A stretch of DNA of 63,943 nucleotides, counting the filler, from Folioceros fuciformis (Eukaryota), in the NCBI GenBank assembly GCA_049999805.1. It is 5 parts of 3 records of this genome, joined end to end, with 100 filler letters (N's around TTAATTAATTAA, not from the genome) between each part and the next. Parts side by side here need not be neighbours in the genome. Positions count along the whole stretch, not along the records: positions 62,327 to 63,943 come from JBNGIO010006213.1; 4 more parts are not named here. One strand, written 5' to 3'. The position numbers were made by a program, and so were the translations under genes. This document shows, one piece after another, positions 18,231 through 63,943 of the stretch (positions within the stretch are counted from its first letter, which is position 1; the number at the start of each line of letters is the position of its first letter). The notes under the pieces were generated by a model. That model saw only the letters and a program-made list of their open reading frames with translations. It was not told the origin of the DNA and did not search any database.

Positions 18231-18344
18231 TTACACCCGCTTGGAGTAGCAATCCCAAATTGGTGGGGTGCAAGATGCGCTTGGAAGTGCTCTCAAAGTT
18301 GAATTGTGATACTTCAGCTGATAAGGCGTAGAAATACCTCTCAC

Positions 18345-25084: not shown

Positions 25085-25812
25085 GGTCTCTTGCCAGCTA
25101 TCTTAATCCTCCCCGCATTGTGTCGTGGCACACACCACGGAACTCGCTGCGGGTATCATTCTCGCCCTGCGCAAGTTCTGAGCATTTAAGAGAGGTGAGC
25201 TTGTACAACTTGTAGCGAATGCTGGATTCAGCTAGTCGTTGTGCTCTGTCGGCGCCAAGGATTGCTTCAGCAGCCTCAGGCTTCGTCGTTGCCTGATGTG
25301 GGACTCCTGAGACATGCTGCTCCCTATGAACCAGTGAAGTTTTGTGAATTTCTTCTCAACATGCTACTTACCCCTGGATAGCCTCCTGTCCACAACACTG
25401 AGTACTCTCCATGTCCAGAATGTGTGACAAGCAAGGTCAAGTCCTAAGGATTGATTATGATGTGTATTATTATTATCATGTTTTTCTTCCTAGAAAAGAA
25501 ACCAATTTATTTATGAAGTTTGCCCAACTAGGCGACAAGGAACCCCGTCGGGAAGGCCCGTGTCTTCTTTTCGAGCGGGTTCCTGGAAACCCGCCCTACT
25601 AGGAGTTATGCGCCAAGAGTTTGTGAGGGTTTAGTAACTTCTTGGGAAAATGCTCCTCACGGATAGCCAAGTGTACTAGTCCAGCACTCCCATTGCTTGC
25701 TCGTCTTGCGAAGCTGTATGTGTCCTTTGGAGGAAACAGAAAGTCACCTTTGTATTAGGTTAGCAGAGAGTAGATGAGAGTCTAAGCTGCAGCAGAGGGG
25801 AGCGACGGCAAG

Positions 25813-30590: not shown

Positions 30591-30945
30591 GGCTATACCC
30601 ACCGAAGATTCCCAGCTCGTACTCACCAGCTCGTCTGCTGGCTGCCAAGAGCAGAGTCGATACACTTAGCTCGAGGACGAGGCGTCAGGCTACGATGCCT
30701 TCACGACTCTCAAAGTTTCTAACGCGTCTCGAAGTTCTTCCGTACTACACGTATGTACTTGTTGCCCTTGTCGACCGACCATCAGATATGCATACAGGAC
30801 GGCGGGCACCAAAAACCCAGCTCGACATGGGGCCGTGCGGCGGGACCCCTAAACCCGACCGTTCCGTTATCCTGTGTAAATGAGGTGTGTTTAGATTAGG
30901 CCGTCACTTACGACATTTGAAGGTGCAAGTACATACATTTTAAAC

Positions 30946-33342
30946 CTACCCCGACATGCGCGTAACGCCTTGCAACAAACCGCTTTGCTTGAGGTCTGCT
31001 TGGAGGTCTAGCAACTTTCGAAGAACACGTTCCCCCTGTTTTTGATCTTTATGTTTGCTCTCCCCTAGCGTGAAGACATGCACTTCCTGGTCGTGCTCGA
31101 TCCAGCACCGTCCCTGCTCTTTCCATGCACCTGCACTCCGCCTCAGCACGTCTACATCCCTTGCTGCGTCAAACATGCCAGCATCGTGGTAGATGTGAGA
31201 CATCAGCACATACGCTGCTGCCTCTTTGGGGGCTAACCGAATGGAGCTCTCGAAACAGCGTCTTCCCAGTGCTGGGCAGCGGTGGCTGCGGCAGGCAGCG
31301 AGTAGTGACGACCACACAGCTAAGTCAGGCTCCCACGGCATCTTGAGCACCATGTCTTCTGCTTGGCTCAAAAGTCCTGAGCGCCCAAGAAGGTCTACTA
31401 TGACGGTGTAATGCTGTAAAGTAGGATCAATGCCGTGGTCTCTGCTCATGGCAGCAAAGTATTCCAGGCCTTTCTCGATCAGGCCTCCGTAGCTGCAAGC
31501 CAATAGGAGCGCAAGAAAGGTGACTCCGTTGGGAGGAACACCTGCCCGCTGCATCTGCTCAAACCACTGCAAGCTTTTTTCACATTCTGCTTGTCGTGCG
31601 TAACCTGCTATTAATGCTGTCCAAGCAAATATATCCTGCCGTGGCAACACATCGAAAACCTGCTGAGCACAGGCCATGCTGCCACACCTGCCATATGCAT
31701 GAACAAGAGCATTTCCCACCAAAATGCTGTGCTCACATCCGCCTTCCACGATATCTTGGTGTATTCGATGGCACATATTTACGGACCCTATACTACTGCA
31801 CACTCTCAGAATGCACAAGAACGTAGCCTCATCCGCTCGAAGACCTTGCATTTGCATCCGGGCATAAAGGTCGAGAGCCTTCTCATCTTGCTGTTGCTCG
31901 GCACAACCTGAAATCATTGCAGTCCATGCCACCACGTCCCTCTCAGGCAATGCTTCAAAAAGATGGTAGGCGTAGTCGAGGTTCCCACACTTTGCATACA
32001 TGCTCACTAGAGAGCTGCAAACCCACCAGTGGGAATCATGTCCACCCGAGACAGTTTCAACATGGATTGCCTTCCCCTTCTCCAACGCCTCCTTCTTCAG
32101 CCATTGCCCGTCCACGAGTGTCCCAACCTCCATTTCTGCAAGGGTAGCACACGCTTTCAGGGCACTCATAACGGTCCTCTCGTTTGGCGTGACTCCCTCG
32201 TCACGCATTCGTGCATACAGTTGCAGCGCCTTCTCACCTTGCCCTAGTTGAGAATATCCAGTGATGAGTGCAGTCCACGACACCACATCGTTTTGAGGCA
32301 ACATGTCGAACACTCTTTGCGCATCTCGCATGCTCCCGCACATGGCGTACATGTGCACCAAAGTGCTACCAACAAAACTATCCGAGCCGTATCCCATGCG
32401 AACAGCTTCAGCATGTACAGCCAGGCCCTTGTTCAACGACTCCACCTTAACTGCCAAATCATTCTGTAATGTGCTTTCCTCTACGGCTGCAAGGCTACAG
32501 CAAGCTTGCAGCACCCTGACCAAAGTCCTGTCATTGGGTGTGACGTCTTCCTCCAGCATCAGAGCATACAGTTCGAAAACCTTCTCCCCTTGTTGCAGAT
32601 GAGCATACCCCGAAATCATGGCAGTCCATACTATCACATCACGATTCACCAATTTGTCAAACACATGTTGTGCCTCAACCATGCTCCTGCACCTGGAATA
32701 CATATCAACCAACGCAGTCCCCACAAACAAATCCTGCTCGCATGCTTGCTGAACCACTTCAGAGTGAACCCGCCTGCCCTCATCCAGGTCTCCCAAGCCA
32801 CCACAAGCTCTGAGGAGAGGGACGAACGTGTATCTGTTCGGCTGCACCCCCTCCTGTTTCATACGCCGGTACCAGCCTAAAGCCTCACGGCCTTGCCCTG
32901 TATTAGTGCACCCCGTGATGATAGCCGTCCAAGCGAATGCCCTCCTGTAAGACAACCTTTCAAACACCTCAATAGCATCCACAAGGCTTCCGCACTTGAC
33001 CAGCGCGTTGACCAGCGATTCGGCCAAGAACAGGTCAGAATCCATCCCCATCTTCACCATATGGGCCTGCACTACCTTTGCATCAGCCAGAGCTTTCTTC
33101 CTCACGCACGCCTGCAGCAAATCCTTGTAAGTGCGTACCAAAGTGGCCCTCCCCTGCTGCTCCATACGAAGTAGGACATCCCCTGCTCTTCCCACCTGAC
33201 TGCAAACACAAAATCCATCACACAACAAGGTCGCTACGTCTTCTAACAGCTGCTAACCACCATCTCCAATACTTACCCGCCCACTACCCTTCCAAGAGCG
33301 AGCAGCTTCCTCAACCTCCTCCGGCCTCCCAATCCCCGCCAT
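30946..33342 (-). CDS. PLS-class pentatricopeptide repeat protein with E1/E2/E+ extension (truncated DYW); short putative first exon 33277-33342
   Basis: 760-aa ORF of P-L-S triplets (xxWTAxIxGY, LVxMYxxCG), HYTVIVDLLGRSG, WSSLLAAC, AGAWKEQGRCWIE..VHVF. No HxE/CxxC deaminase signature. Confidence 0.93.
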
Positions 33343-33544
33343 GTCATCAAACACGGTACAGGGCGAAAGCCTCGTCCTCACCTTCGATACATGTGCGAAC
33401 TTGGTGGACGAGCTAAGAAATCCACATCCCAACATGGTGTCTTGGACGGCGCTCATATCGAAGTGCGTAAGAGATCACGGACTCGCAAATAGCGTAAGGA
33501 ATCCCAAGCACAACGTGTCCAGGTCACCAGATACCTTCGTTTGA
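33341..33544 (+). pseudogene. Single degenerate PPR motif remnant, opposite in orientation to the adjacent PPR gene
   Basis: CANLVDE...PNMVSWTALISKC...G matches the S/P motif junction. Confidence 0.45.
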
Positions 33545-33991
33545 GCGAGCCCGCTTAGTGCTCGCGAGTTTGTTCAATCCAGGCAACCAGATACTTCCAC
33601 GAGCCCACGGAGTACCCGCTCGGTGGATAAATGCAAGGAGAAATCGCTTCCTCACAGAAAAAAAAAAAAAGAGGACAAAATTGAAGCCGAGTGAACCAGC
33701 TACAAAGAAAGGGAGCTAGGGCAAAGGACTCTATAAGTAATGGCATAAGTGAAATAAGGTGAAAGTTAAAAGTAGAAAGGTGAAAGCTAAATCTAGAGCT
33801 GTCTTGATGAAGAAGCAAGTATGCTTCTTACTGCCTTTGGAAACAAAATGTGTGTTCCAGGCAAAACCTCCTAAGAAGGATGGAGTTGTAANNNNNNNNN
33901 NNNNNNNNNNNNNNNNNNNNNNNNNNNNNNNNNNNTTAATTAATTAANNNNNNNNNNNNNNNNNNNNNNNNNNNNNNNNNNNNNNNNNNNN

Positions 33992-34435
33992 GAACAGACA
34001 TGCCCATGACATAGCCCGTCGATATCGTGAAGAAAAGGAGCGTCAACGAGGACGTAGCCACAACTATAACACTTCTAGAGGATCTGGGTACAACTCCCTA
34101 AATGCACCACCAAGACTCCTAAGAGAAGAATGGTTGAAGGAACTCCTTCTTACACTTGAAAATCAAGGATGAACTCAATTTATAAATGAGCCTGCATTCT
34201 CTTGCCATGGTGTCTGCACACCATGGAAGAGAGCCATGGCTCTGATACCAAATTGGAAGACTACATGTGGAAGCGTGTCTTCTACATACAAAAGTTGAAT
34301 TAAGATTAAATTGTGAAGTATAATTAATTGTCCTTTTATAGGTACCACCCGAAAGGGTGTGTCCTTTCACTAGTCTAGATAACTAACCTATCAGTTACAT
34401 TGCTAAGCTATCTAGACCTAAGGTTACATAACTCA
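33992..34435 (-). mobile_element. 5' LTR, PBS and leader of a second LTR element nested in the 3' end of the copia at 34.4-39.9 kb; body lost in gap
   Basis: tRNA-iMet PBS TGGTATCAGAGC at 34239-34250 (minus strand). The adjacent sequence does not match the LTR at 39723. LTR boundary approximate. Confidence 0.5.
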
Positions 34436-37400
34436 AGTGAACTGCTACCTCTTCTAACTTGGAGGAAGAACCAGTTGAACAAAACTTTGACCCTAACTTC
34501 CTACATAGAACAAATGAACAAGACAGTAGCTCTGGTTTAGATTCTGAGGCCTTCTAAGTGTAAAGTAGGGTAGCTTACTCCAAACACTGCACAATCAGGA
34601 CATCTACCAAACATTGCTAAGCTGTCAGGTAAGAAGAGTCAAGGACTCCTAGTGACTCCTTGAACTGCAAATGTTTTACCTTTGGTAGGGCTTTGGTCAA
34701 ACGATTAGCTGCATTAGAATATGTAGGTATGTATACCAGATATATCTGACCTGTTGATACTGCATGTCGTATGAAGTGGTGGTGCACCTCTATGTGCTTG
34801 GTTCTTGCATGAAGAACCGGGTTCTGAGCAAGTGAAAGGGCAGACTGATTATCGCAATAGATTGTTGTTGGTTGTGTCAGCTCCTGACCTAAATCCTTGA
34901 GAAGTCTTCTCAACCATATGCCCTCCTTTGCTGCTTGAGTGAGGGTAGAATACTCTGCCTCGGTCGAGGATAATGATACTGTGACTTGCTTTTTCGAAGA
35001 CCAGGTGATTACCCCTCCAGATAGCAAGAATGTGTATGTGGAGAACGAACTTTCTGGTGTCTGGATTTGCAGCCTAGTCAACATCACAATAACCCAACAA
35101 GGTTAGTGGCTCACCCTCATATGACTGCTTTGTGTAATGGATGCCATGCTTACTCGTACCCCTAAGGTACCTTAGGATCGTCTTAACAGCCGACCAATGA
35201 GCCTTACCAAGCTCCTTAAGGAACTGTGATGTCATACTTACAGGTAAAGAGATGTCGTGCCTGGTGTGATTAAAGCAGAAGATAAGTGACCCCACTGCTT
35301 GTGAATAGGGAACCCCTTCCATTTCCTGCTTATCTGCTGCTGTAACTGGTGACTGCTCCAGGCTTAGCTTATAGCCTGCTTCCATGGGTGTTGCAGCTGA
35401 CTTGACATCTGTCAACTTGTATTTATGTAACATGTCAAATATGTATTTCTCTTGATGTATGATGAGTGTGCCACTTGACAGGTCACGGAGCAGCTGTGTA
35501 CCCAAGCAATAGAACAGCTCCCCGATATCAACCATGTCAAACCTTCCAGATAAGAGAGCCTTCACTATGTTGATGCCTTCTAGGTCAGTGCCTAGTAAAA
35601 TACAGTCATCAACATACAAAGCTAACACTACGAATCCTGGTTTGTCTTGTAGAAAGTACACGTTGGAATCAGCATCCCTTTTGCAAAAACCAAGATCCAG
35701 CAGAAACTCGTCGATGCACTGGTACCAAGCTCTGGGTAACTGTTTCAACCCGTAAATAGTCTTCAACAGTTTACAAACCCAGTCCTCCTATCCTGCAGTT
35801 TCGTATCCCTCTGGCTGCACCATATAGATTTCTTCCTCCAAGTTGCTATGAAGAAAGGCTGTTTTCACATCCATCTCGTGGATGTACAGGGAGAAGAATG
35901 CTGACATGGCGAACAGGGCATGGAGGGACTATGCCTTCACCGCCGGAGAAAGGTATCATGGTAGTCTAGTCTTGGGACTTGGGAGAACCCTCTAGCTACT
36001 AAGCATGCTTTGTACCTCGCTACAGATCCATCAGCTTTATACTTCAATTTAAACACCCACTTACAACTGACTACCTTCCTCCCCTTAAGCGGGGGACAAA
36101 CCTCCCATGTGTGATTGTGAAGCAGGGAATCATATTCGGAAGTAATGGCAGCAATCCAGTGACGTGAATCAGGACCGGAAACAGCCTCCTAATAGGACTG
36201 CGGCTCATAGCCAGGTTGGACAGCAAGGTGAGAAAACTCGGCAACTGTCTCATCTGGATTTGCTCCCACTACATGAGGAACTGGTAGAGTCCTACATGCT
36301 CGCCAGTCTTCTGCCTCATAAGGTTGTTCCCACCATTGATCTCTGCCCCTATGTGTTATCTTTGATTTGCGAGGTTGAACTGCAGGAAGATCAGGTGGGG
36401 GGACAAAATATTCAACGGGGTCGTCAACATCTGGATCAGCAAGGGCAGGAAGTACGGGCAGACCTTCAACTGAGCCAACGTCATCCACAGCTAGAGGATC
36501 AGGATCAGGGTGAACTGGCACAGCAGGTGGGTCTCCAGGTTCATGTCCGTCAGGTTGAGAGGGATCGACAGCAAGAAAATCCACAATATCCATCATGTCT
36601 GGGTCCACATCCTCTACCTGACCATGAACTCATGAACTTCCAGGTCAGGAACAATGTCTGAGTCATGAGGAGTGGTAAGAACAGTGCGTTCATCGAACAC
36701 TACTGTACGAGCATGGACAACTGGACGAGAAGATGGCTCAAACAGCTTATACCCATGGATACCAAGTGTGTATCCTATGAACACGTGTCTCTTAGATTTG
36801 AAAGCAAACTTCTATCTAAGCTTATCTGGAATATGAGCATAAGCTGTGCTGCTGAAAACCCTGAAATGTGAAATGTCGGGCTTCACTCCTGTCCAGGACT
36901 CAAACGGTGTACAGTCAGGAAGAGAAGACATCACAAGCCGATTCTGGAGATAAGTAGCTGCCTGAACAGCTTCAGCCCAAAAACGAATAGGCAACCTCCC
37001 CTGAAATAGCAGAGCCCTTGCAACATCCTGGATTGTTCTATGTCGGCACTCTGCTCTTCATGTCAGGATGATAAGGAATAGTCAGCTGCCTTGTAATACC
37101 ATATCCTAACAAAACTCATGGAATGCTGTACACAGGTACTCCTTCCCATTATCCAAACGGATGCACTTAAGTTTATAACCTGTTTGACGTTCAGCATATG
37201 CCAGGTACCTCTTAAAACTGTCAAATACATCGCTTTTATGCTTCAGCAATTCAGTGACAGTGAAGTGCGTTTTGTCATCTTCGAAAACAACAAAGTATTT
37301 TGCTCCTCCCCAGCTTGGAGTCGACATTGGACCACAAATATCAGTGTGAACTCAGTCTAACACTTCTGTGGATTTTCTTGGTTTCCCAGAACCAAAGTGT

Positions 37401-39915
37401 GACTTAAACTGCTTGCCATGAATGCAAGCGAAACATAGATCAAGATCTGGTAAGTCAGACTCTGTAAAACCTGTAACCATCTTCTCCTTCAAAAGACGTC
37501 GCATTGCTTGAATATTGGGGTGACCTAACCTACAATGCCATCTGAAAGCAACCTGAGTTCTACTGACTGGAAACTTAGATACTTGAGCTGTTTGTTGTGG
37601 CAGGTCTAAGACAAAATCCAAGAGATATAGGTCATATAAGGGGGTACCTCTAGCAATAATTTCTGAAGGGGCACTCAACTTGGTAATTGCACACTCTAGT
37701 CCTTCAAACAAAATACTATACTGACCAATCTCACCTAAGACCATGGTGCTAACCAAATTTTTCTTGAGTGCTGGGACATGTAGAACATTCTCTAACTCCC
37801 ATGTTTTCCCATTGTACAGAGTCATAATAATAGATCCCATTCCCTTAATGGGTATATGTGAATTGTCCCCTAAGACGACTGCATGCTGGAGAGAAGATAC
37901 AACATACTTGACAAAGTTATTTCTAGAAGAGCACATATGATTTGACGCACCACTTTCTAGAAACCACTGATTCCTACCCTTCGAAACAGAAGATAAACAG
38001 GTAACCAGCAGTCCTGGTGTAGCAGCTCTTGTAACATTTGATTCATGTTGCTTGCCCTTTCCAGCGTCATCTTTTTGTTTCTTTCTGCAGTCTCTAACCC
38101 AATGACCTGGCTTGTGGTAGTAATTGCACACACCAGGTTTCTTGCTGGGCTGCGATGGATTGAAGCTGGAAGACTCGTAGTTGGACGCGTGTCCTCTACC
38201 TCTTCAAAAGCTTCCACGTCCTCGCCCCCTGAATATTGCGGCCTGTAAAAAGAGCTGTATCGCTCTGTTTATGGGTAGAGGTTGAACCTCCTTTGCTCAT
38301 ATGCTTTCTGTTGGCCTCTGCTTGTAAGAGAGCGCCAACAAGCTTCTGAACTGTGAGGTTTGTTACTGCAGGTGTGGTTGCTGTTGCTGGAGTGACAGTG
38401 GCAGCAGCTTGAATACTTGAGCTCCAAATTTCGTAACTTGGAGGGAGGCGTATCAGAAACTAAACAGCTGCCCTCCCTTTAGATAAGATCACTCCACAAG
38501 CTGCTAACTTGGCTCTTACAGCTCTGAACCTGGCCACATGACTCTCAACTGAGTCAGTTTCTTTCATGCGCAGGTTTTGAAAATGACTTATTGCTGCTGC
38601 CTCCGAGATGACATCCTTAGACTCGTAAGTGTCATTCAGCAAAGACCAAACCTCATGTGAGAATTTAGTCAATTTGATATGTGGTATCATCGTCTGAGAG
38701 ACTGATCCCACTAGAATTGTCCTTGCTTTGCGATCCTTGGAGAGCCAATCAAGCTCATCCTTGGCTGTCCACAGCTTCTTATTAACTCCTCCAGGAGTCA
38801 GTGTGCCAGAGTCTTGACCAGCAACACGCCGTGGAATCGAGCCATCAGCAACATCCATAAGCAATTTCTCCTCCAGAATACACCTCACCCGAAAAGACCA
38901 CGCATCAAAATTATTAGGGGTGAATCTGTCTTTTTCTTGTAAGCGGTCAGAATACTGATTTGCCGCCATGATGCCTGTGATGAGGAGAACTACATAGTAG
39001 GGGTTCTCAGGAAAGTCATCTTCTCCCTGAGTTCGTCAATCTCTGACCTATGACTTTTGATTTCTAATTCTGCCCCTACTGCAGCGACGCACTTTGACTC
39101 CCGCAATTTCTCCAGGCTATCAAGGCGGTTTGATAAAATGTCTACTCTTCGTGAACTTTCCAAGACGTAAGACTTGACATTAAAGAGAGAATTGAAGAGA
39201 GAGTCAAATTGTTTCAGATCTTGTGAACTGTAGGGTTTACAGGATCTACACTTTACATATTGTTGTTTCAGTGAGTTGTAATTTGCTAGGCAGCAGGAGG
39301 TGTCTAATCTGTCCACATTTCTGAATTGCGCACGTGAATTGGAGCCAGAATGTTCTGAATAATAAGAATCAGTAAATGCTTTCAAGAAACGCACCCGCTC
39401 TTCCTGTTGACTGGCGAAGATTTGTTTCTTGAAATACAGTTGTTCAAATTCTTCTCCAAAACTTTCCAATTCAGAAGTAGATTGATGCCGAGCCTTGCTA
39501 TTCCTAGCAGAGACTGGCCACACCTGCCTGCAAACGCCCTTCCGAGGCATCTCGCCTCCACCGCATCAAACCGCGCACATATTGTTCAATTGCCATAAAA
39601 ATATATTTTTTTTTTGTTAAAGAATCAAGAACTGAAAAAACATGTTTTTGGCAATAATGTAAGACGATTTCAAATAGCCATCAGGATGAGCAAGGCAGGA
39701 AAATTGCCTTGCTCTGATACCATGAAAACATTGTAGTGCATGGATCAAACCACACGCATGCACACACAAAAGAGTTAGTTATTTAAGAATAAGGTCCACT
39801 ATAGATATGTCCTCAGACACTAGTAGTTGTAACTGCTACAATAACCCTAACTACCTAAGGTACAACCCTAAGAGTATAGGCAATGTACTAACAACTAATA
39901 TCTACTTGTTTAACA
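34436..39915 (-). mobile_element. Ty1/copia LTR retrotransposon, degenerate (extra 5' ORF, gag, CCHC, PR, INT, RT, RNaseH)
   Basis: 5' LTR 39723-39915 (TG...CA), PBS 39711-39722, gag from 38969, CNYYHKPGHWVRDC, WFLESGASNHM, WHCRLGH, YGLKQ, LYVDD, LSSTEAEY, RTKHIE. The 3' LTR was not found. Confidence 0.92.
38990..39550 (-). CDS. Accessory 186-aa ORF between PBS and gag of the copia element; C-terminus probably coiled coil
   Basis: Open ATG-to-stop ORF ending 20 nt before the gag ATG; heptad-like ILSNRLDSLEKL...EIDELREKM. Confidence 0.55.
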   Translation of the reverse strand: MPRKGVCRQVWPVSARNSKARHQSTSELESFGEEFEQLYFKKQIFASQQEERVRFLKAFTDSYYSEHSGSNSRAQFRNVDRLDTSCCLANYNSLKQQYVKCRSCKPYSSQDLKQFDSLFNSLFNVKSYVLESSRRVDILSNRLDSLEKLRESKCVAAVGAELEIKSHRSEIDELREKMTFLRTPTM

Positions 39916-41009: not shown

Positions 41010-41109
41010 NNNNNNNNNNNNNNNNNNNNNNNNNNNNNNNNNNNNNNNNNNNNTTAATTAATTAANNNNNNNNNNNNNNNNNNNNNNNNNNNNNNNNNNN
41101 NNNNNNNNN

Positions 41110-47850: not shown

Positions 47851-48739
47851 CATGCTATTACACCATTTGTCCAGACTGCGGATGTAACAAACCTATCTCC
47901 ACCAGTGTGTTGACTTGCAACAGTTGATGACGGGCAGTTTGTAGCTGGTCATCGATTGTGGCCGGGTGATCAGCACTGTGCACAACATTCTATGCAATGC
48001 AGAAAATAGCATGCATTGTAGAGCAACTCAGCACCTCCTCACTCTCAATCTTCAGTGTGGACTCAAGATGGTCCTCATCTCGTAGTGGATCAAGTGGGAT
48101 TGTCATGCAAGCTAGCTCCATGTTGTCAAAGCAGGCTTGTCACATGACCCTGGTAGCGATGTCAACCTTTGCATTCCCATGAAGCCTAAGTGGAAGGAAA
48201 GCCACCTTCTTGCCACCGTCTAGACTGGGTGTCTAGTCTAGACGATAGTATGCTTGCTCAGTCCAATTATCAATGGTAACGCAAGGGGGAAACAAGAATT
48301 CTTGGCCCAATAAGACATCATAATTTGTGGCAGGGATGACCAAATAGGGGACACTAAGAGTCATGGCATCCTCCATCCATGGATTAAGGGTGATGTTGAC
48401 AGGGTGCACTATTTCCCCCATGACTGGCTCAATGGCTCCAAATGTTGTCCGAACATTCCAAGGAGAACTTTGCAACGTAGGCCCATGAAGCTAAAGTCTA
48501 GCAACCAAGGCTTTGCCTATGATGACAGGTTGTGCCCCCTGTGTCAAGCAGCACAACCCTTGGAGCATAACCATTAATGGTAACTACCCGGTGCCATTGT
48601 CGACAAGCGCATTGTTGACCCTCTCCGTGAGACGATTGGTACGCTGCACTCATGGCATGTCCTAAGAGATTGTTGAGGGCACCCAGCCACCAAAGTTCTT
48701 GTATCCCCCCCCCCCATTGTGAGCCAAGCCAGGGGTAAT

Positions 48740-49018
48740 GCCAGCAGCCATCATATTTGGCTCTGCCATAAGATGGGGCTGCCAGGTCATGGCTAAATGC
48801 CAACAGCCATCATATTTGGCTCTGCCATAAGATGGGGCCGCTAAGCCATGGCTAAATGCCAGCAGCCATCATATCCGGCTCTGCCATTAGATGGGGCTGC
48901 TAGGCCATGGCTGAATGCCAGCAGCCATCATATCTGGCTCTGCCATAAGATGGGGCCGCCAAGCCATGGCTAAATGCCAGCAGCCATCATATCCAGCTCT
49001 GCCATAAGATGGGGCTGC
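48740..49018. repeat. 59-bp tandem repeat, ~4.7 copies, between gag and protease of the DNMT element
   Basis: Repeated GCCAGCAGCCATCATATYYGGCTCTGCCATAAGATGGGGCYGCYAAGCCATGGCTAAAT. Confidence 0.9.
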
Positions 49019-51289
49019 GGATAACTGGCGTACAACACTATTGGATGCTGCAAATCCATGACCAAGGTTTCAAGCCCAATGCCCATGTTGCGAAGGGTAA
49101 ACAATGGCATGCTAGTGAGCTTAACAACTAGCTCCTCAATTGCTAGGGTCATGGGCAGCAAGTAGATAGAATACTGACCTACCTTGAGGGACTTGGCACC
49201 CGGTGACCTTCCCATGCTTGGCTGTTCTCCAGCTGCAACAAAAGGCTCTTGTTCTTGCATGGGGATGGCCATGCCTGGAGGCAACGGAGTGAAGGACTTG
49301 GGCATTACAACCTGTGCTCCCCGCTGCCATGTGAGTGGTCCAGGGATGCTAACAGCTTCACATTGTGCGCGGGCTTCACACATCTAACATCGCCCCAACA
49401 TCCACCACAATAGTAATTGCAACGATTCTCCTACCTACTCGCTCCATGAAATCTAATCGCTTGGGCCTCCCAATTTCATATAGCCAGCTAGTCATGGTGC
49501 ATAAGCTAAAATCACTTCACGTCAACACCTCGAGTGAGCAGCTAAGGTCATCAAGAAAGTCTCCTTGCTATCCACAATGCTCAATTGTGAAGCCAATGTC
49601 CACCGTAACAGCACTTGCAGCGATCCTCCTTCTTGCTCGCTCTAGAGAAATCCTCCTCCCCATGGATGGAGCAATGCTGCCTATGGCTTCTTATCCTCCG
49701 ATGCAAGAAGCCTACTATTACCGTGCCATCCCTTCCTGATGTCTATCTAGCTTGAGCCCCACTTGAACTCCTTGCCGAATCGAAACGAGATCAGTGTATC
49801 GGTGTCATTGAAAGGTTTGCAAGCCAGATTGATTGGAAGCACTTTGCTATATCAAGAGAATTTGTGTCTCGCCCCGCCTGCGTATCTCGCATCGCTGCCC
49901 CGTCGCTCATCTTTGGTCCCAAACTGAACCAAGGTGACAAATCTCCATGAGTGTAAGCCCTCTCCTAAGCATGCTACTCCCTCTTGTGGTAGCCATGAGC
50001 TCCACTACGGGTCTTGCAATCTCGAAATTGTCATCCCTCTCTCGATCGCTTAGCTCTAATACCATATGTAAAGAAACATTGGTCTCGCTAACAAGCCCAT
50101 AGCCATAAAGGAAAACAAGGAACCCCTCAGTTCAGCAAGCAGTCCCTTCTTGTAGCCTATGCCATGGGTCCTAGTTTGGGTTCTTGACCCTGGTTAGTTG
50201 ACTAGCTACTTGAGTTAGTTACTAACTAGAGTTCATTTAACTTGAGTTACTTCACCCGTAGGCCTAACCCTAACTATTTATCTGGTTCTCTTCTAAACTC
50301 TAGGCATGCTCTAAGCTGATATACTTGTAGCCATTGTTCGTATCCTAGCAATTGCATCTAGGCACTCATGAGGTGCCCCATCCTAGTTCTCATAAAGCTA
50401 CTATCAACTCGTTAGCTCACAACTATGGTTGGCCGTGACAGTGACAGATCAACCACAGTATCCTCTAAGTTGGCGTGTGAAACATGTTCAAACGTTCGGA
50501 TGAATGACTCTACATCCACATCCTTGCATTTGTCTCCAAATTTGATGTACGTGGAATCCACATGGTGACTGGATCCCTTGGGAAAAGTCAGTCGGCTCTG
50601 GGCAGGCAGGTGGCTTCCAGGATCAATCAAGCAAGCGGGCGCTGTCGGGATGGCAGGCCAGTCGACTCTGAGTAGGCAGGCGGGCGGATGCAAGCATGTG
50701 GCTGGCTGGCTGCCAGGCAGGCAAGCGGGTGGCAGCGCATCCAGGTAGTAGGGTGGCTGGACCGGATCAGCGGGCAGGCGGCTGGCAGGATCAAGGCAGG
50801 TTGGCAGGCTGCTGGCTGGCTGGCTGGATCGGCCAGGCGGTGGTGTTGATCAAGAAGGCTGAGTTGCGGTTGCGCAGGCAGGCGGACTGGATGGCAAGGA
50901 GGCAAGTAGGCGGCTGGCAGGCATCCGGCGGTGGCACAGACGGGCGGCAAGCTGGCTGATAAGGAAGGCTGGACCGTGGCAAGCAGGTCAGCAAGTAGGC
51001 TGGCTGATCAGGAAGGCTGAATCGCGATAAGCAGGTCAGCAGGCAGGTTGGTTGATCATAAAGGTTGGATCGTAGCAACAGCGATCTAGCCTTCCTCGAA
51101 TGGCGGCTGCAGCAGCTGCGTGTGTTTGCGGGGTGTCGGCTTTTGACCTCCGGAGCTGGGATGGTACGAATGCTGGTGCACAGGAGGGAAAGGAGAGGAT
51201 GTTCCTGCAGGAGCGAAAGACCATGGACAGTGGTGTGGATAGCAACGAGGGGAAGAACTCGGACAGTTCGTGTGAGAGTGGATATTTCC

Positions 51290-54696: not shown

Positions 54697-54850
54697 TGCT
54701 ACAAGAAAAGATGCTAGTGCACAAGTTGCATAAAATGACAATTAATTAAACTCAACCAAAAAAAAGGTATTATATACAAAGTGTCTTTTCATAACTATGG
54801 TTAATTAACCCTAAGGTAGGTTATACTAAAATAACCCCTTATTATTAACA
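54697..54850 (-). repeat. 3' LTR of the full-length copia
   Basis: TG...CA, near-identical to 61021-61174, adjacent to PPT TAAGTGGGAG. Confidence 0.95.
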
Positions 54851-55454
54851 CTCCCACTTAACCTACTCTTAGGTTAAAGGTAGAATCCCTCTCAGGTTAA
54901 AAGTAAAAAAAACTTAACCACTAGGAAAACTTTATAACGGAACGGTGTCACGCAACGGAACGGAACAGAAAAACCCCAGAGAACGTGCAGCGGGAAATTA
55001 AAGCCGCATAAACTTGCACATGCGAAAACCAACTCACGAAATCCCCACGGCGATTCGCACACGCGCGGCCGCTACACGAGAACGGACCACGACGAGAACA
55101 CACGCGCGACACATAACACAGAGCACGAAGCCAGCTTGTGATCCGCGAGTCCTCTACAAGACATCGCGATGCCGCCGCGAGGCGCCCGTCCAGCAATCCG
55201 GCGCGGGACTTGTCCTGCTGCCTCGCAAGCGCGGGGCGATCCCGCTGCTGGTTCAGCACGGGCTGATGAAATGCCAGAAGGCTCACAACCCAGCCATCCA
55301 GAGATTGAGGAACGACGCAGGCTGACCCCGTCCTCGTTCTTGCTCTGATCTCGATCTAATCACCTTTGCTTTCGGTCTTGGCAGGTCTCGCGGAGTGCTG
55401 TTGGTTCACGCTCACCATCTCATCACGTTCAGGCTCAGCACCTGCAGGGCTTCC

Positions 55455-55694
55455 ATGGCGCGGACTAAGCAGAAAAGAGGCACCAAGGCCAGCCCGCTGT
55501 GGAGGAAGAGTGTGAGGAGACCATCAACACTGAAGCATCGAGTGAGAAGTGGTGGCCGACGCAGGCGGACCGAAACTAGATTGTTCACTTGCTCCAAACC
55601 TCACAGAAGTGTGAGGAAATTGAGAACCTCCTCAAATCAGCCAGGCTGCGTGTCTTGGAGCAACTGGATGTGCAACTCCAGCATGAAACTGTGA
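55455..55694 (+). CDS. Putative antisense accessory ORF in the copia 3' region, starting MARTKQ (may be frameshifted or spliced)
   Basis: ATG in CCATGG context after a TGCAG acceptor-like site; GTGAGT donor-like site at ~55691. Confidence 0.4.
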   Translation: MARTKQKRGTKASPLWRKSVRRPSTLKHRVRSGGRRRRTETRLFTCSKPHRSVRKLRTSSNQPGCVSWSNWMCNSSMKL

Positions 55695-55901
55695 GTTCAA
55701 AAAAAAAACCACCAACACCTGCTGTCCTCTACGTTTTTCCTTTCCAAGTTCATTGTTTTTTTTTTTCTTTCCTTTTTTTTTTTTTGCCAACAACACTAAT
55801 CAGGCTTTAACTGAGTAGAAAGTCTGGCTTAGCACTTGTAGGCTCATAGTTCTCCTCCTCTTTTTTTGTGTGATCTCACTGCTGAGCTTACAGCACAGGT
55901 C

Positions 55902-58900
55902 TTAGACAGTTTTTCTAGTGACTGTAAATGCACGCAGCCCACATGCTGCACTATGTTTATAATGTTTGATCTTTGGTAGTCCTTTTGTTAGGAGATCAGC
56001 TGTGTTATCTTCAGTGTTCACATATTCAACTTTAACCAGTCCTCTCTCAGCCACATCTCTTATATAGTGATGGTATAATTCGATGTGCTTTGTTCGAGCA
56101 TGAAACCGGGGGTTGGACACAAGGGCAATAGCAGACATGTTGTCACATTTCAGCTGAGTTGATCCAACTTGTGTTTGTTGTACAGAATCAAGGAATTGGC
56201 GCTCCCACTCAGCTTCTTTACATGCATCTGTTAAGGCCTTGTATTCAGCCTCAGTGGAGGACAAAGCTAACGATGTTTGCTTTTTGCAGCTCCAGCTGAC
56301 AACACCTGAAGCCAAGATAAAGCAGTATGCTGAAAGGCTCCTTCTAGTGTCAGAATCAGCTGCCCAATCAGCATCAGCAAAAGAGGTCAGTATAAATTTA
56401 TTGTGTCCACTAGCTGTATAGTGAAGTCCCCAATTTAGTGTGCCTCTTAAATACCGATAAATTCTCTTAACCGCTGACCAGTGAGTTCTCCCAAGTGCCT
56501 TCAACAACTGGGAAACAATGCTAACAGCATAGGAAATATCTGGACGGGTCCAGTTAGCAAGGAAAATCAGGCAACCAACGGTTTCAGCATATGGAACAGC
56601 AGCCATATCAGTAAGTTCTTCAGAACTTTGAGGAGATTGCTCTGCTGTCAATTTTTCTCCCACTGCTGAAGGCGTAGTGACTGGTCTTGCTTCAGCTAAA
56701 TTAAACCGTTTGAGTATTTCCATTATATATTTGGTCTGATGTAAGATTACCACTCCCTTGTCACGATGTCTCAGAATTTGAATACCCAAGCAATATTGCA
56801 GCTCACCTTGGTCAGTCATCTCAAACTCTGCCCTCAGCATGTCTTTGACTTTAGATAGTAAAGTCATATTGTTAGTAACAAGGATGGCATCATCCACATA
56901 CAGGGCTAATATAACAAACTTGCTGTCTTCTGAAAAGAAGAAAACATTGGAGTCTGCAGGTAGTCACTGTACAAAGCCAAGCTTCTGAAGATATTTCACA
57001 ATTCGTTTGTACCAAGCTCGAGGACTTTTCTTTAATCCATAAATAGTTTTAAGTAGCTTACATACTTTATTTGGATATTTCTTACCAACAAACCCCTCTG
57101 GCTGTTGCATGTACAGGGTTTCTTCAAGCTCTCCATCAAGAAAAGCGGTACACACGTCCATTTGGTGAACTTCCAAGTTATATTCAGCTGCCATAGCAAG
57201 GAGAATTCTAACAGATGGGGGTTTAACAACAGGTGAGAAGGTATCACCATAATCCAAACCAGGTATTTGACTAAACCCTCTCGCTACAAGTCTTGATTTG
57301 TAACGTGCAACTGTGCCATCTGATTTGAGCTTTGTTTTAAAAACCCATTTACAGCTGATTGGCTTACGCCCAGGTGGCAACTCCTCTAACACCCATGTGT
57401 TGTTTTTGACTAAGGAATTAAATTCATCATCAATGGAGATTCGCCACTTATCACCATCAGGGCCATTGATAGCCTCTGAATAGGATTGGGGGTCAGGTCT
57501 CATGTCAGGTACATATATTTCAGCAATATGGGCCTGTCCGAAATTAACTGATTCATATGGTTTCTCTAACCAATTCTCACGTGTACGCCTCTCTCTCATA
57601 GGATAACGAGGTTGATCCTGGATTTGGGCTTGTGGAACTTAAGGTAAGACCTCTCGCACAATTTCAGCTGTACTGTGTGTAGAATGTTGAGAGGCTACTG
57701 ACCCTTCATCCTCAAAAGGATCATCAACTCCTTCAACTTGTGGTAAATTCTCCTCAAAGGCTTCATGAACATCTGTATTTTCAGCAACCACTTCCTCCCC
57801 ATCAGATAAAGGAAATTCAGCAAACTGATTAGGCTCAAGGTCACCCTCAGCATCTTCATCTTGTATTTGATTAAAATGCTGTTGTATATTTGAGCCATCT
57901 TCTGAATAAGACAGGTCTTCATGAGCATCTTCTACAGATGTTGAAGCTTCAGGACGTGGTGAAGACAACTCTTCAAATGTCACACTCCTAGCTAAGGTAA
58001 TAGTTGAAGTATTGGAGTCAAATAATTTATATGCCTTAGATTCTTCAGAATAGCCTAGGAAAATTAGAGCCTTTGCCCTATCATCTAACTTCCTGCGTTT
58101 CTGTTGAGGAATAAGGGCAAATGCAGGGGAACCAAAAACTCTTAGGTGAAGCAAGCTTGGTTTTCTTCCCCAGAATGATTCATAGGGAGTTTTATCAGGC
58201 ACAGACTTTGTCAACACTCTATTTAGAATGTAAGTTGTTGTGACTATGGCCTCAGCCCAGAAACGCTTTGAAAGTCCTACCCATGAAAGCATGCTTCGAG
58301 TCATTCCCATAAGTGTTTGGTTCTTGCGTTCTGCCACACCATTTTGCTGTTGCGTATATGGTATGGAAAATTGCCTTGTGATTCCAAATTGATCAAATAG
58401 GGAGTCATATTTGTGACCTACAAATTCACCTCCATTATCTGATCTCATACACTTGACTAACTTTCCAGTTTGCCTTTGTACCATAGGTATCCAGGATGAT
58501 ATCTTGTCAAAAGCATCACTTTTCTATTTAAGAGGAAAGGTCCAAGTGTACCTACTGAAATCATCAGTCAAGGTTAAGTAGTACTCCGCTCCTCCTAGCG
58601 AAGGTACCTGTATCTTCCCAGCAATGTCCATGTGAATCAATCCTAGAACGCAATCAGCTCTTGTAGCATTTTTGTTCTTGAAAGGAAGCTCCTTTTGTTT
58701 AGAGAGTACACATGACTTGCAGACTGGAAGGTGCTTAAAGCATGAAGGTAACTTTTCTTTATAATAGTCACCTGTGGACATTAAGTCTAGCTTGACCTTA
58801 TTTACATGTCCAAGTCTAGCATGCCATAGATTTGCTAGAGACTTAGATGTAGCAACATTCACAGCTGGACTATGATCTCCCACTGAAAGCTGATAGAGAT

Positions 58901-60284
58901 CATTCTTAAGTAACCCTCTAGCTAAACACACACTAGGTTGTGTTATGCTATACAAACAGCAGGAGTCCTTAACAAAGCAAAAAGCAAACTCTGACATTTG
59001 TGTAAGTGCTCTAATTGACAACAGGTTCTTTGACTTGTCAGGAACATAAAGTACATCCAGCAATTCAAGAGTGAATTCACTAGAGATAGGTACACTTACT
59101 GTTCCACTTCCTAGTACCTTCACAGCACGTGAATCTCCCACATACACTGACTATGGGAATGACTGTCTAATGAAGGTAGTGAACAGGTGGTGATTGTTAC
59201 ACACATGTGAGGTCGCCCCTGAGTCAATGAACCAAAGAGAGGGATGCTCTCTTGTTGAAGTCAAGCAGACGGTCAACACTGTTGAGCTGCTCTTTTGAGC
59301 ACTTTGGGTACTAGAAGATTTGTTGCCTCTTTCAGCAACATGAGCTTCAAGTTTTGGCTCCTTGCGAGCTTCTCCTGATTTCTTCTTACGGCACTCTCTT
59401 TCCCAGTGGCCAGGGAGCTGACACCAATTACAGTTGCCTTGCCTTTTGGGATTTCCAGGTGGGGTTTTCTTACCCTTACCCTTCCCCTTCCCAAAAGGCT
59501 TCTTCATTGCAACTAACACTTTCTCTGTTCTAACCTTTGTAGAACCAGAAGGCCGATGGCGAGTCTGCTCCTCTTGATGGAGAGCTCCCACTAGCTCATT
59601 GAAAGTGAGGGTGCCAGCACCACCTGCTTTAACTGCGGCAACAGAGGTGCGCAAGGCTACATTCTGTGTGGACACAAAGTTTGGATAGGAGGAAGGAAGA
59701 CTGGACAACAATTGTGCAACTGTGTCTATATCAGATACAGTTCCACCAAGCTGAACAATTTGTTGTCTCAAGTAGCGGAAGCGGGTAATGTGAGCACTCA
59801 TTGTATCTCCCTCCTTCATTCTTAGTCCATAGAATTCATTCCTAGCAGCAACAAGAGTCAATATATTCCTTACTTGATATGTATCATGTAGTTGTGTCCA
59901 GACATCTGCTGCAGTTGGTAGAAACTCCACCTCCATAACTGTGGCCTCATCAAGGCCTGAAAGTAGCATAGCAAATGCCAATTTGTTACCCTTTTTCCAT
60001 TTATCAATTTCAGTTTGTTGTGCTGCAGGGCCAGGTTGTTCAAAGGTGCCATCCACAAATTCCAGAACATCATGGGCATCAAGAAGGGCCTTCATTCTGG
60101 CACGCCAACTCTCAAATCGCTGTGGCTTGCCATCAAAGCGGTCCTTTTCTTTGAAGTCACCAGAGAATGCAGACGTTGTAGCAGAAGACATGTTTGCTGA
60201 CCCACTAAGTAAGCTAGAAGCAGCCAATTGTGAAATAAGCTGATCTAAAGCAGACATGTGCAGACAAAGTGGAAAAAGGAGCAA
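55902..60284 (-). pseudogene. Copia gag-pol polyprotein, single frame with four premature stops
   Basis: Gag, CNWCQLPGHWEREC, WFIDSGATSH, LWHARLGH, RSDNGGEF, QQNGVAERKN, RLVARGFSQ, LYVDD, ADWAAD, LSSTEAEY, RTKHIE; stops at 59151, 58524, 57639 and 56964. Confidence 0.95.
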
Positions 60285-60502
60285 ATATGAAGAGGCCTTG
60301 CACTACAAACACATGAAGAGGCATGTGAGGTAAGCAAAAGACCCATTCAATGTGAAAAGCTACCCTAATTTAATTAAAAATAGAATTAAATTAAATTAAA
60401 GGNNNNNNNNNNNNNNNNNNNNNNNNNNNNNNNNNNNNNNNNNNNNNNNNNNNNNNNNNNNNNNNNNNNNNNNNNNNNNNNNNNNNNNNNNNNNNNNNNN
60501 NN

Positions 60503-60880
60503 TGATTAGAAGTAGACTGTGCAGGTGCAATTTGAAATTCATACAATCTATTAACTGTTGCAGAAAAATCTTGCAAAATTAACAGCAAAAATTCCAAACG
60601 ATCCTCCAAAGCCTCAATTCTTTTAGGTACTTGATCAAGCCAAACCAGCCTGTTGTTCATTTGTTGGAGAAGACGCCTCTGAATATCTCCAGCACCTGAA
60701 TTAACCCTCTCAGCAGCAATTCTGTGGGAATTGTGTTGTGCAGGATGCAAGCGAGGAGGTGGGCACCTACTTTGTAGAGTAGAATGTAGGTGATTGTAGT
60801 GGGGATTGCTGCTCTCTCTACAATCTTTGGCCTTGTGAAGGCCTGAAGCTAGAAGAACAATAGCTTCCCCTTCTCCTCGT
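60503..60880 (-). CDS. Putative accessory coiled-coil ORF between PBS and gag of the full-length copia; runs into gap
   Basis: Open frame ...IQRRLLQQMNNRLVWLDQVPKRIEALEDRLEFLL...; same position as ORF 38990-39550. Confidence 0.4.
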
Positions 60881-61020
60881 CATCCTGCACAAAATTCACT
60901 AGCATAAATGCATTTTAACACTCTAAGTAGCACTCTATGCTAGACAATAGAAGTAGAGACAATCTTCTTCTACAATTAGCCATAGGACTACTAGATAAAA
61001 ATGCATGGGCTCTGATACCA

Positions 61021-61174
61021 TGCTAGAAGAAAAGATGCTAGTGCACAAGTTGCATAAAATGACAATTAATTAAACTCAACCAAAAAAAAGGTATTATATA
61101 CAAAGTGTCTTTTCATAACTATGGTTAATTAACCCTAAGGTAGGTTATACTAAAATAACCCCTTATTATTAACA
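61021..61174 (-). repeat. 5' LTR of the full-length copia
   Basis: Directly abuts the iMet PBS; matches 54697-54850. Confidence 0.95.
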
Positions 61175-62326
61175 CCAATAGACTTGCCTTGTCAAGGAAA
61201 GCAATTTGGTATAAAAATTAACAGCAACTAACCTATAACGCAGGCAATATGTGCCCTAAACTTTAAGGTTGAAATCCCCAAACTTGCAGGGTGAGCGTTG
61301 TTGTAGCTGCCACACTGCTGCGGCTGGCAAGATGTGGTGACGCTGCCCTGCTATAGGTGCGTGGATGCCTCCTCCAAGCTTAGCCGCACTCGGATCTTGC
61401 ATGCAATTGTTGAAGTGACAAGCAACGATGCTCACTTGCACCTTGCTGATTTTTCGAAAGAGCTGCTTGCATCAAGCAGCTATGAGTTAGGTAAGTCATG
61501 CACATAGCTCCACATGCACTACCTATCCCCATCTTGAGCACATCGATTGACAACACAACGAGATTTCTTTGACAAGAATAGGGTTCAGACAAAAGGTGTG
61601 TGTAAGAGTAGCTCTCCTTGTGCGAGACTTCAACAATTGCCCCTACAGCTACCATCTCCTGGTTTTCTTCGTCGCTATTGCCATCAGAAGCGCTACCTAC
61701 CCAAGTTGTCTTCTTCATGATCACAACCACTTCTCACACCAGCTGCATCTGTTTCCCCATGAGATGCAATTGGGCCTTCTATTTGCATTGGCAGTTGGGT
61801 GGTAAATGACCTAATGAACTAGCATTAAGGCTGGTATTTCTAGATGGATCTAACTGGCCTATATAACTAATATTAAAACTAGTATTTCTATGCTGTAATC
61901 ATTGTAGTGGTTTCTTAAATAACTTAGCATATGTAAATAACAACTCTAGTTACCCTCACATCAAGCTTACATGCATTGTAGTAGCCTGTCGCATACCAAT
62001 CAAGTGTGGTATTATAACACCTATGTGTAACATGATCTATGACAACTCATCACTTCATGTAGCCCATGTTTGCAATAGTGAAATGTGGTATTGTTGTAGG
62101 TACCATAACATATAGTTAAAATTGGTTTGCAATTATAATATGCAAGTGGTGGTTTAGTATTTAGGGTTTAAGGCCGAGCCTTAAGGTTTAGACTCACATG
62201 CACATAAGCACAATTTTCATGAGGATNNNNNNNNNNNNNNNNNNNNNNNNNNNNNNNNNNNNNNNNNNNNTTAATTAATTAANNNNNNNNNNNNNNNNNN
62301 NNNNNNNNNNNNNNNNNNNNNNNNNN

Positions 62327-63943
62327 ATCCATGGAGTCCCAGCTGCTGCCCGCTACCATTGCCACTGCTCAGCTCGTGCTCTACATACTGATCTGACTGA
62401 AATCCAGCATAATCAGAATGAAGACTCGAAGTGGGAAGCAGTATGAAAGCGGGAACAGGGGTAACGCCGAGAGAAGGGCTCCCAAGGCGGGACCCCAATT
62501 GCTCTCTTGCTGCAGCCGGGGTGAGACCAGCCATGAAGAATGGGGAGAGAGCTTTTGCGTTGGGCAGCGCCTGCAGATTGGTGATTGTCGGATCACTATC
62601 AACCTATCTGTGGAGCGGAGAGGTGCTCTCCCTACAGTTGACAACACCGACCCAGACACCCTGCGTGAGCTAGAGAGTAGAGCTGACCTGATCGGGCTGC
62701 TGGAGGACACTGCTAGACTGACTAAGACTTTGAAGGAAGGCCATGGAGCTGATGGCTAGGCTGTTGGTTGTCGGCAACCAGGTGATTTGGTATGCAATTG
62801 GCTTCATCCACCTGTTGCGGACTTGCTTGGGTTACAGTAATTACACTCACACACACGCTTCTGACGTGCAGATATCTGGCTGCCAGGGGAGTGAGGGTAG
62901 GTGACTGACTGTCATAGGTGTCTCCACAAGACAGGCTTATGGAAGACGCCTGTGATTGAAGGATGGATCCTGCCTTCCCCAACCCACCAGATAAGTTCTG
63001 CTCATTTCTCGATATGTGCTGTGAAATTACCAATCCCCAACCCCTTCATGTGCTGGTGATGCTTATACTTTGGCAGGGCCTTTGTCAGAATGTCGGCAGT
63101 ATTGTCGTCTGTCCCAATAAAACCTACCCTTGTTACACCTCTGTCCACAGCATCTCGTATATAGTGGTGTTGAATTTCGATATGTTTAGTCCTAGCGTGG
63201 AAGCGTGGATTTGCGACCAGGGCCAGAGCAGACATGTTGTCACACGAAATCAGGGTTGGCTCAATCTGCTCCTGTCCGAGATCATGTAAGAACCTCCTCT
63301 CCCACTCTGCCTCCTTTGTTGCTTCGGTTAGAGACTTGTACTCTGCCTCGGTAGATGAGAGTGATATCGATGTCTGTTTTTTGCTGCTCCAGTTGACAGC
63401 TGCAGAGGCTAACAAGAAACAATATGTGGATAGGCTTTTGCGGGAGTCCGAGTCTGATTGCCCAATCAGCATCCGTGAATCCCGACAAGACAAGTTTATC
63501 CTGCCTGCTGCTCTTGTATATCAGCCCATAATACATGGTGCCTTTGAGGTACCTGAACACCCTTTTTACTGCTACCCAGTGTATTCTGCCTGGATTTTCT
63601 AGGAATTGGGAAACCATACTTACAGCATACTGTACATCAGGTCTAGTCCAATTCGCAACAAATATCAGGCTTCCTACAGCATGCCTGTATGGAACCCCTT
63701 CCACATCCTTTTTGTCTTGGGCTGATTGGGGGCACATCAGACTAGTAAGTTTAACTCCTACTGCTGCGGGGGTAGTAGCAGGTCGACAATCCTCTAGCTT
63801 AAACTTTCTGAGTATCTCATTTATATACTTAAGCTGGTGGATTATCATCAGCCTATCAGGTCTGTTTCGGATAATCTGAATTCCCAAGCAGAATCTAAGG
63901 GCTCCAATGTCTTTCATTTCAAATCTGCTGCTCAGCATAGCTT
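62327..63943 (-). mobile_element. Ty1/copia RT-RNaseH and 3' region; continues beyond the window
   Basis: FEMKDIG, YRHAVGSL, TRPD, HW.AVKRVFRYLKGT, FTDADW (frameshift near 63465), WSSKKQ, LSSTEAEY, RTKHIEI, ADILTKAL. Confidence 0.92.
62418..62759 (+). CDS. Antisense accessory ORF (MKTRSGK family, 113 aa) downstream of copia RNaseH
   Basis: Intact ATG-to-stop ORF, homologous to 15607-15930, preceded by CTGAC...CAG intron-like signals. Confidence 0.6.
   Translation: MKTRSGKQYESGNRGNAERRAPKAGPQLLSCCSRGETSHEEWGESFCVGQRLQIGDCRITINLSVERRGALPTVDNTDPDTLRELESRADLIGLLEDTARLTKTLKEGHGADG

Follow-up and report, generated by a model that had tools for sequence, protein, structure and literature searches.

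A candidate antisense coding gene between pol and the 3' long terminal repeat of Ty1/copia retrotransposons in Folioceros fuciformis

Analysis of a stretch of 63,943 nucleotides (nt) from the genome of Folioceros fuciformis (assembly GCA_049999805.1), referred to as the window, identified two diverged copies of a small open reading frame (ORF) whose product carries the peptide MKTRSGK. One copy lies beside the 3' end of a Ty1/copia pol gene and on the opposite strand to it; the other adjoins a polypurine tract (PPT) and a putative short 3' long terminal repeat (LTR). On balance, this ORF is probably a real, selected, element-borne antisense coding gene of a Ty1/copia retrotransposon. The features of the two copies are as follows.

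62331-62759, + strand: conserved antisense frame of copy 1, broken by an in-frame TGA and running from the MESQ start that both copies have as far as its stop
62760-63001, 242 nt: spacer of copy 1, from the antisense ORF stop to the pol stop
63002-63943, - strand: 3' end of Ty1/copia pol, with the end of the reverse transcriptase (RT) followed by RNase H, truncated where the window ends
15607-16017, - strand: antisense frame of copy 2 from MESQ, uninterrupted, 136 amino acids (aa)
16115-16123, + strand: PPT-like GAGAGGGAG, directly before a TG (TGTGAC...), read by eye
16124-16271, + strand: putative short 3' LTR of the copy 2 element, 148 nt, TGTGAC... to ...TGTACA

A sequence-only reading of this DNA had placed an ORF at 62418-62759 (+) about 240 bp from the stop of a minus-strand copia element. 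This arrangement was confirmed. The ORF encodes 113 aa from ATG to stop, while pol enters from the window end on the minus strand and terminates in a stop at 63002-63004, leaving 242 nt between the two opposite-strand stops. The pol fragment at 63282-63941 matched the Pfam family RVT_2 with 32.7 bits against a cut-off of 31.6, and its RNase H part was 64% identical to that of a complete copia element in the window (element D) and 59% identical to that of a copia fragment (fragment C), both of which are described below. The C-terminal end of this pol consists of an RVT_2-type RT followed by RNase H, which assigns the host element to Ty1/copia, and with the ORF on the + strand and pol on the - strand the coding strand of the ORF is opposite to that of gag-pol. 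An LTR start just after the copy 1 pol stop was considered and rejected: a purine-rich tract is present at approximately 62972-62990, yet the sequence after it in the sense direction has neither a TG start nor a TATA or AATAAA.

Copy 2 displays the other side of the arrangement. The MKTRSGK ATG is at 15930, yielding the ORF of 15607-15930 (-) that had been proposed as the homolog; an additional in-frame ATG at 16098 would give 163 aa, and the frame is open, stop to stop, up to 16161. The statement that this homolog adjoins a PPT and a TG start held, since GAGAGGGAG (16115-16123) is followed immediately by TGTGAC... on the + strand. The putative LTR contains TATATA at 16155-16160 and AATAAA at 16243-16248 and ends ...TGTACA at 16271 in the + direction. 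It is read as facing + because TATA precedes AATAAA. No tRNA-type primer site was seen on the ORF side of this LTR. Copy 1 therefore displays the ORF from its pol side and copy 2 from its PPT/LTR side, at matching distances, each copy being cut by the end of its contig.

The window is composed of five contigs chained by artificial linkers that carry stops in all six frames.

15456-15555, 33892-33991, 41010-41109 and 62227-62326: linkers of the form N44-TTAATTAATTAA-N44

Copy 1 occupies the last contig (62327-63943; JBNGIO010006213.1) and copy 2 the second (15556-33891), each at a contig end. As the contigs are separate, distances and neighbourhoods across the linkers are artificial; the homolog said to lie 46 kb away is indeed present at 15607-15930 (-), but the distance itself is an artefact. 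Likewise, of the two copia elements originally proposed, that of copy 1 is established by its pol, whereas the contig of copy 2 is without pol and its element is only presumptively copia.

The two copies are conserved chiefly as protein. BLASTP aligned 43 of 109 residues as identical (39%, E 1e-19), and tblastn with the longer frame of copy 2 gave 42.8% identity over 138 aa (E 3.7e-25). The three protein blocks reported as shared from the sequence alone were all present in the alignment. At the DNA level 266 of 464 positions were identical, about 57%, and blastn detected only 106 nt of likeness between the copies. Searching the window with a degenerate codon pattern for MKTRSGK returned the sites of the two copies and nothing else, with 0 matches expected from 100 shuffles. 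Differences at codon positions 1, 2 and 3 numbered 65, 45 and 86 over 137 codons (chi-square p 4.6e-6), and 32 of the 59 identical residues are written with different codons. The segment MESQLLPATIA shows 7 synonymous differences and 0 replacements, while MKTRSGK has 5 changed letters and 0 replacements, among them an Arg for which one copy has CGA and the other AGG. Every internal gap of the protein-guided alignment spans whole codons.

A comparison of nonsynonymous and synonymous change (dN/dS) had been proposed as a check and was run on these two copies. In a codon alignment guided by the claimed frame, which favours that frame, the proportion of nonsynonymous differences (pN) was 0.39 and that of synonymous differences (pS) 0.73, the latter saturated, so that pN/pS was 0.53-0.535 and below 1; the corrected values were dN 0.55 and dS about 2.7, again saturated. 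Taken from the aligned sequences, these results support protein-level constraint on the frame between two very diverged copies.

When all six frames were scored in one alignment, the claimed frame beat the five others, with a BLOSUM sum of 262 and a pN/pS of 0.535. The frame next in rank lies on the copia sense strand and shares its third positions with the claimed frame (the shadow frame); it reached a BLOSUM sum of 130 and a pN/pS of 0.643, and the remaining four frames gave sums of 7-107 and ratios of 0.99-1.52. Separate local alignments scored 233 for the claimed frame and 128 for the shadow frame. The shadow frame is open over the core in both copies, with 49 of 127 residues identical (38.6%), and its product would be rich in Ser, Leu and Arg with a hydrophobic tail. 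It might be argued that this is the true coding frame, a small ORF after pol of which the antisense frame is the mirror image, post-pol sense ORFs being a type already described in the SIRE lineage of copia in a survey based on REXdb (PMC6317226). We consider this very improbable, and read the shadow frame as the mirror image, for several reasons. Its BLOSUM sums are half those of the claimed frame, and over the MESQ block, in which the + frame changes only synonymously, it is interrupted by stops in either copy. Copy 1 lacks an ATG in this frame until the final residues are reached. The order of differences, position 2 below position 1 below position 3, suits the + frame, whereas a sense frame would give fewer differences at position 1 than at position 2. 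Lastly, the change between CGA and AGG that preserves Arg in the claimed frame is a replacement in the sense frame.

The tblastn alignment extends 29 codons upstream of the ATG originally proposed, to the shared MESQ start. The order in both copies is ATG, ESQLLPATIA, a poorly kept hydrophobic stretch and then MKTRSGK. This N-terminal extension has a Kyte-Doolittle value of 1.8-2.0 over 19 residues, and the first 25 residues after MKTRSGK include 7-9 Lys/Arg. The extension is open in copy 2 and interrupted in copy 1.

62394-62396, + strand: in-frame TGA in the N-terminal extension of copy 1

Judging from these two sequences, either translation begins at MESQ, in which case copy 1 is damaged, or it begins at MKTRSGK and a conserved peptide lies upstream. 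The motif CTGAC...CAG, noted earlier ahead of both ATGs and taken to suggest a spliced antisense transcript, does occur in both copies, but at positions that are not homologous: it begins 25 nt upstream of the MKTRSGK ATG in copy 1 but 18 nt upstream in copy 2, in differing phases, and in copy 2 the CAG follows directly on CTGAC. A splice signal is not supported, since the motifs lie inside a frame that is conserved further upstream, their positions are non-homologous and the available GT..AG pairs would break the frame. An intron between MESQ and MKTRSGK was rejected on the same ground, as excision at the GT..AG pairs found by eye would take out 32 or 41 nt and put the frame out of register.

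No relative of the predicted protein was recovered outside the window. Pfam returned 0 families for either copy at E 0.1 and up to E 10, and within the latter limit neither copy matched PF04195 (Transposase_28). No homolog was found with copy 1 in a word-indexed protein library covering lengths of 62-198 aa, nor was any accepted with copy 2 in a HMMER search of 1.84 billion representatives of any length. The sole HMMER match (E 8.7e-4) was to a 548-aa repeat protein with 5 matched stretches and was rejected as inflated by the repeats. PDB sequences searched with a two-row profile gave no match, and the best score in the ESM Atlas was 0.78, below the level of a lead. Peptide patterns matched metagenome contigs 302 times and viral contigs 59 times with 0 confirmed in either set, and a 32-letter degenerate DNA pattern was found 0 times in the metagenome contigs. 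In Rfam, the two matches of copy 1 were far below the gathering score (18.4 of 46; 13.8 of 55) and copy 2 had none. In keeping with the sequence-only reading, no known host gene family, nor any protein family of transposable elements, was matched in the Pfam, HMMER, PDB or Atlas searches, and the ORF is for that reason not a recognisable host gene. The structure prediction that had been suggested was run with AlphaFold2 on the two-row alignment. The resulting model was poor (predicted local distance difference test (pLDDT) 44.4; predicted template modelling score (pTM) 0.26), and suggests a helix spanning residues 6-35, followed by a hairpin (72-97) and further helices (107-128).

The window contains two further copia sequences.

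54697-61174, - strand: complete Ty1/copia element D
34617-39565, - strand: copia fragment C, with RVT_2, Pol_BBD and GAG-pre-integrase

The LTRs of element D (54697-54850 and 61021-61174) are 154 nt each and 99% alike. A primer binding site, TGGTATCAGAGCC, stands next to the 5' LTR, and at the other end the PPT/LTR joint, AAGTGGGAG directly followed by TGT, is comparable to GAGAGGGAG of copy 2. From the pol stop to the 3' LTR is 1051 nt. The gag-pol of element D contains four in-frame stops (TAG 59153, TAG 58526, TAA 57641 and TGA 56966) and a gap of 100 N at 60403-60502. In fragment C the pol stop is near 34617 and at least 625 nt follow before the contig end, so that its spacer is long too. 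Judged by the architecture of element D, these copia elements seem to be characterised by short LTRs and long spacers.

A third homolog of the ORF was sought in the window by tblastn, with nothing below E 1. The best non-self match among 1953 stop-to-stop frames, by hidden Markov model (HMM), fell in the spacer of element D with E 0.63, aligned to the unconserved linker only and was dismissed; an antisense frame beside fragment C (33993-34172) appeared similar by eye and was not accepted at a BLASTP E of 0.24. With no detectable homolog in the spacers of D and C, the ORF would be either lineage-specific or fast-evolving. The spacer of element D does contain a 79-codon ORF at 55455-55694 (+), antisense to pol and 210 nt from its stop, beginning MARTKQ. 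The remainder is Arg-rich and of low complexity, without a Pfam match and present as a single copy. Histone H3 likewise begins with MARTKQ; the start of this ORF could be chance or a tail mimic.

A number of observations weigh against an element-borne coding gene, and two other explanations draw on some of them. The evidence base consists of two full copies and one partial contig, and the codon alignment was, as stated, guided by the frame under judgement. No single copy displays pol, ORF, PPT and LTR together; the putative LTR of copy 2 was identified by eye, and the window contains no second LTR to pair with it; and no homolog of the ORF was detectable by tblastn or HMM in the 1051-nt spacer of element D. 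The pol of copy 1 is damaged, its reading frame shifting between 63282 and 63493, and the frame of copy 1 itself is broken by the TGA described above. Beyond the residues DTA the C-terminal tail is in different frames in the two copies, the recognition score of the protein in the ESM Atlas was low (1397), and the fold model was poor. As to the pol, a one-letter indel at 63458 separates the window from related public contigs, for which reason the frame break may be private to copy 1 or an error of assembly.

The first of these explanations is that the region is a decaying relic, or a cis-acting RNA or DNA element of the 3' untranslated region, that makes no protein now and possibly acts as a regulatory antisense RNA, as in Ty1. 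In addition to the stop in copy 1, the tail and the poor showing of the predicted protein, it draws on a block that is the best conserved DNA of the region.

62697-62800: DNA-conserved block of copy 1, 73.6% over 106 columns, spanning the last codons of the ORF and its stop
15556-15657: counterpart of the block in copy 2, reaching the contig end

The block disregards the reading frame, includes the tail of differing frame after DTA, and crosses the stop toward pol up to the contig end of copy 2. Something besides protein is kept here, in what would be a non-coding element of the pol-proximal spacer. A hairpin was sought in the block by eye and set aside, as the stem of copy 1 is not retained in copy 2. 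Retrotransposon antisense RNAs without coding capacity are known (PMC7264820; PMC12786077). Against this explanation, the three-base periodicity of the differences and the 32 identical residues written with different codons are not expected of non-coding constraint, and a frame of about 137 codons left unconstrained at such divergence would be expected to have gathered several stops or frame shifts. A relic or purely cis-acting element is accordingly regarded as quite unlikely.

The second explanation draws in part on copy number. Two DNA runs of one sample, searched as Logan contigs, contain copy 1 with word shares of 0.82 and 0.79. A second version was recovered from these contigs, 579 nt in length with 50 other letters and 12 gap letters, approximately 90% alike. 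It covers 62619-63209, that is, the last 141 nt of the ORF, the spacer and the end of pol, and the 12 letters are missing from the spacer region (62760-63001). As this variant spans ORF end, spacer and pol end, the joint between ORF and pol is present in at least two sequences; the variant could nonetheless be a segmental or homeologous duplicate and not a transposed copy, which again tells against an element-borne gene. Contig depth in run X1 was 28-38 over the ORF region, compared with up to 730 summed over conserved parts of pol, so that the ORF-bearing family is low-copy at a likeness of at least 80%. Run X4, guessed to be RNA, gave one contig, which matched 50 nt of pol only.

These data could be accommodated by a host or orphan gene, or a transduced fragment, that merely stands beside copia without serving the element; in that case copy 1 and its 90% variant would be segmental or homeologous duplicates and copy 2 a paralog. 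The low depth, with one or two contigs over the ORF, agrees with this, as do the want of a complete architecture in any copy and the lack of the ORF in the related element D; gene capture by LTR elements is also documented (PMC7264820). Against it, apart from the rejected repeat protein no homolog was found among the 1.84 billion representatives or in Pfam. Each copy is found at the end of a contig, which is typical of repeats, the pol side of one and the PPT/LTR side of the other are found at matching distances, and DNA conservation passes the ORF stop toward pol as far as the contig of copy 2 reaches. We regard a host gene as unlikely, and continue with the antisense coding gene of a Ty1/copia element as the preferred reading.

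Run X3, from the same sample, differs from 62327-63943 at 205 places, of which 166 are C>T or G>A, the pattern of a bisulfite-type library. Owing to this pattern the differences were not counted as variants, and the run could serve for profiling cytosine methylation across the element.

Grande of maize, RIRE2 of rice, Retand of Silene and PvRetro13 all bear antisense ORFs between pol and the 3' LTR, which form a recognised class and for which a regulatory role has been proposed (PMC7264820; PMC11963269). Accordingly, the earlier suggestion of an undescribed selected accessory gene stands with respect to the protein constraint, the apparent position in the spacer and the lack of a family match, but not with respect to the arrangement, which belongs to a known class. 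The present ORF resembles Grande gene23 and the corresponding genes of RIRE2 and Retand (the type designated aORF-3'R) in its apparent location between pol and the 3' LTR, its opposite strand, the lack of clear outside homologs and a presumed regulatory role. Those elements, as the same sources describe them, are Ty3/gypsy of the Tat/Retand group with spacers of 2.9-6.6 kb and ORFs mostly greater than 600 bp, and 97% of Retand clusters carry the TRP28 (Transposase_28) domain. The element considered here, by contrast, belongs to Ty1/copia; its putative LTR measures about 150 nt and its spacer about 0.8 kb, and the ORF has 110-160 codons and matches nothing in Pfam.

Within copia, the REXdb survey counted extra ORFs of at least 250 codons in 582 Ty1/copia elements forming 45 groups, and its main text names only the SIRE sense type among them (PMC6317226). 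With this type, the 'env-like' eORF-3'F, the ORF shares the position of an extra reading frame after pol in a copia element; the SIRE ORFs are described there as heterogeneous and without shared domains. They are nevertheless sense ORFs of at least 250 codons as counted, while that described here is antisense and of 113-163 codons, and it falls outside the SIRE type. A literature search brought up no publication on an antisense ORF conserved in Ty1/copia elements of plants. The antisense gene of HTLV, a deltaretrovirus, cited in PMC7264820, offers a further parallel as a minus-strand gene near the 3' end, with a promoter in the 3' LTR that is conjectural in the present case; no sequence or domain likeness to the present candidate was found, however, and the host here is a plant. 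Antisense promoters have been cited for the copia-type elements AtRE1 of Arabidopsis and Mdoryco1-1 of apple (PMC7264820), and antisense RNAs for yeast Ty1 (PMC7264820; PMC12786077). Since antisense transcription of Ty1/copia elements is documented in this way, an antisense transcript for the ORF is plausible. As described there, however, those cases are promoters or regulatory RNAs to which no conserved protein belongs, whereas in the present case the constraint falls on protein.

The arrangement that would follow is a gene for a small protein, of about 110-160 aa depending on the start, carried on the opposite strand to gag-pol. The spacer that houses it, about 0.8 kb long, would extend from the pol stop to the PPT and short 3' LTR. 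An antisense transcript might begin at the inner edge of the 3' LTR and be translated from the MESQ or the MKTRSGK ATG, a step that is possible though somewhat doubtful. The proposed start site takes its basis from the palindromic TATATA, 31 nt inside the LTR, and from the complement of the PPT, which would present a pyrimidine tract at the expected start. As modelled, the product would start with a hydrophobic helix, continue with a basic stretch (the 25 residues that hold 7-9 Lys/Arg) and a beta-hairpin, and end in acidic helices. By analogy with the antisense accessory proteins of Grande, RIRE2, Retand or HTLV, it might act on the life cycle of the element itself, for example by binding nucleic acid in the nucleus and modulating transcription or silencing; this is a guess and, taken as a specific function, an unlikely one. 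The fuller proposal, of a short-LTR Ty1/copia lineage with a selected antisense gene, a bidirectional core promoter formed by the TATA and the PPT complement, and a protein that founds a new family, is put forward tentatively, and we lean slightly against it as a whole.

Elsewhere on the contig of copy 2 two ordinary host genes were noted: an intronless frame of 768 aa encoding a PPR protein (30946-33252, -) and a frame with a molybdopterin-binding (MoCF_biosynth) domain (26159-27085, +). The intronless PPR frame is indicative of a land plant. Tandem repeats are present at 48737-49031 (period 59 nt, about 5 units) and at 18389-18572 (period 61 nt, 3 units).

Extra genes of LTR retrotransposons are candidates for the tuning of transcription, for nuclear entry and for escape from silencing, and those in antisense have so far been found almost only in large Ty3/gypsy elements, where they have no assigned function. 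With two copies, one of them damaged, the antisense gene described here is still only a lead. If it is real, surveys that count only ORFs of at least 250 codons (PMC6317226) would have missed it, which would argue for lower thresholds, and its short product would be a tractable protein for testing. The antisense arrangement would then not be peculiar to one superfamily, and plant Ty1/copia elements would possess a counterpart of Grande gene23 and of the antisense genes of retroviruses.

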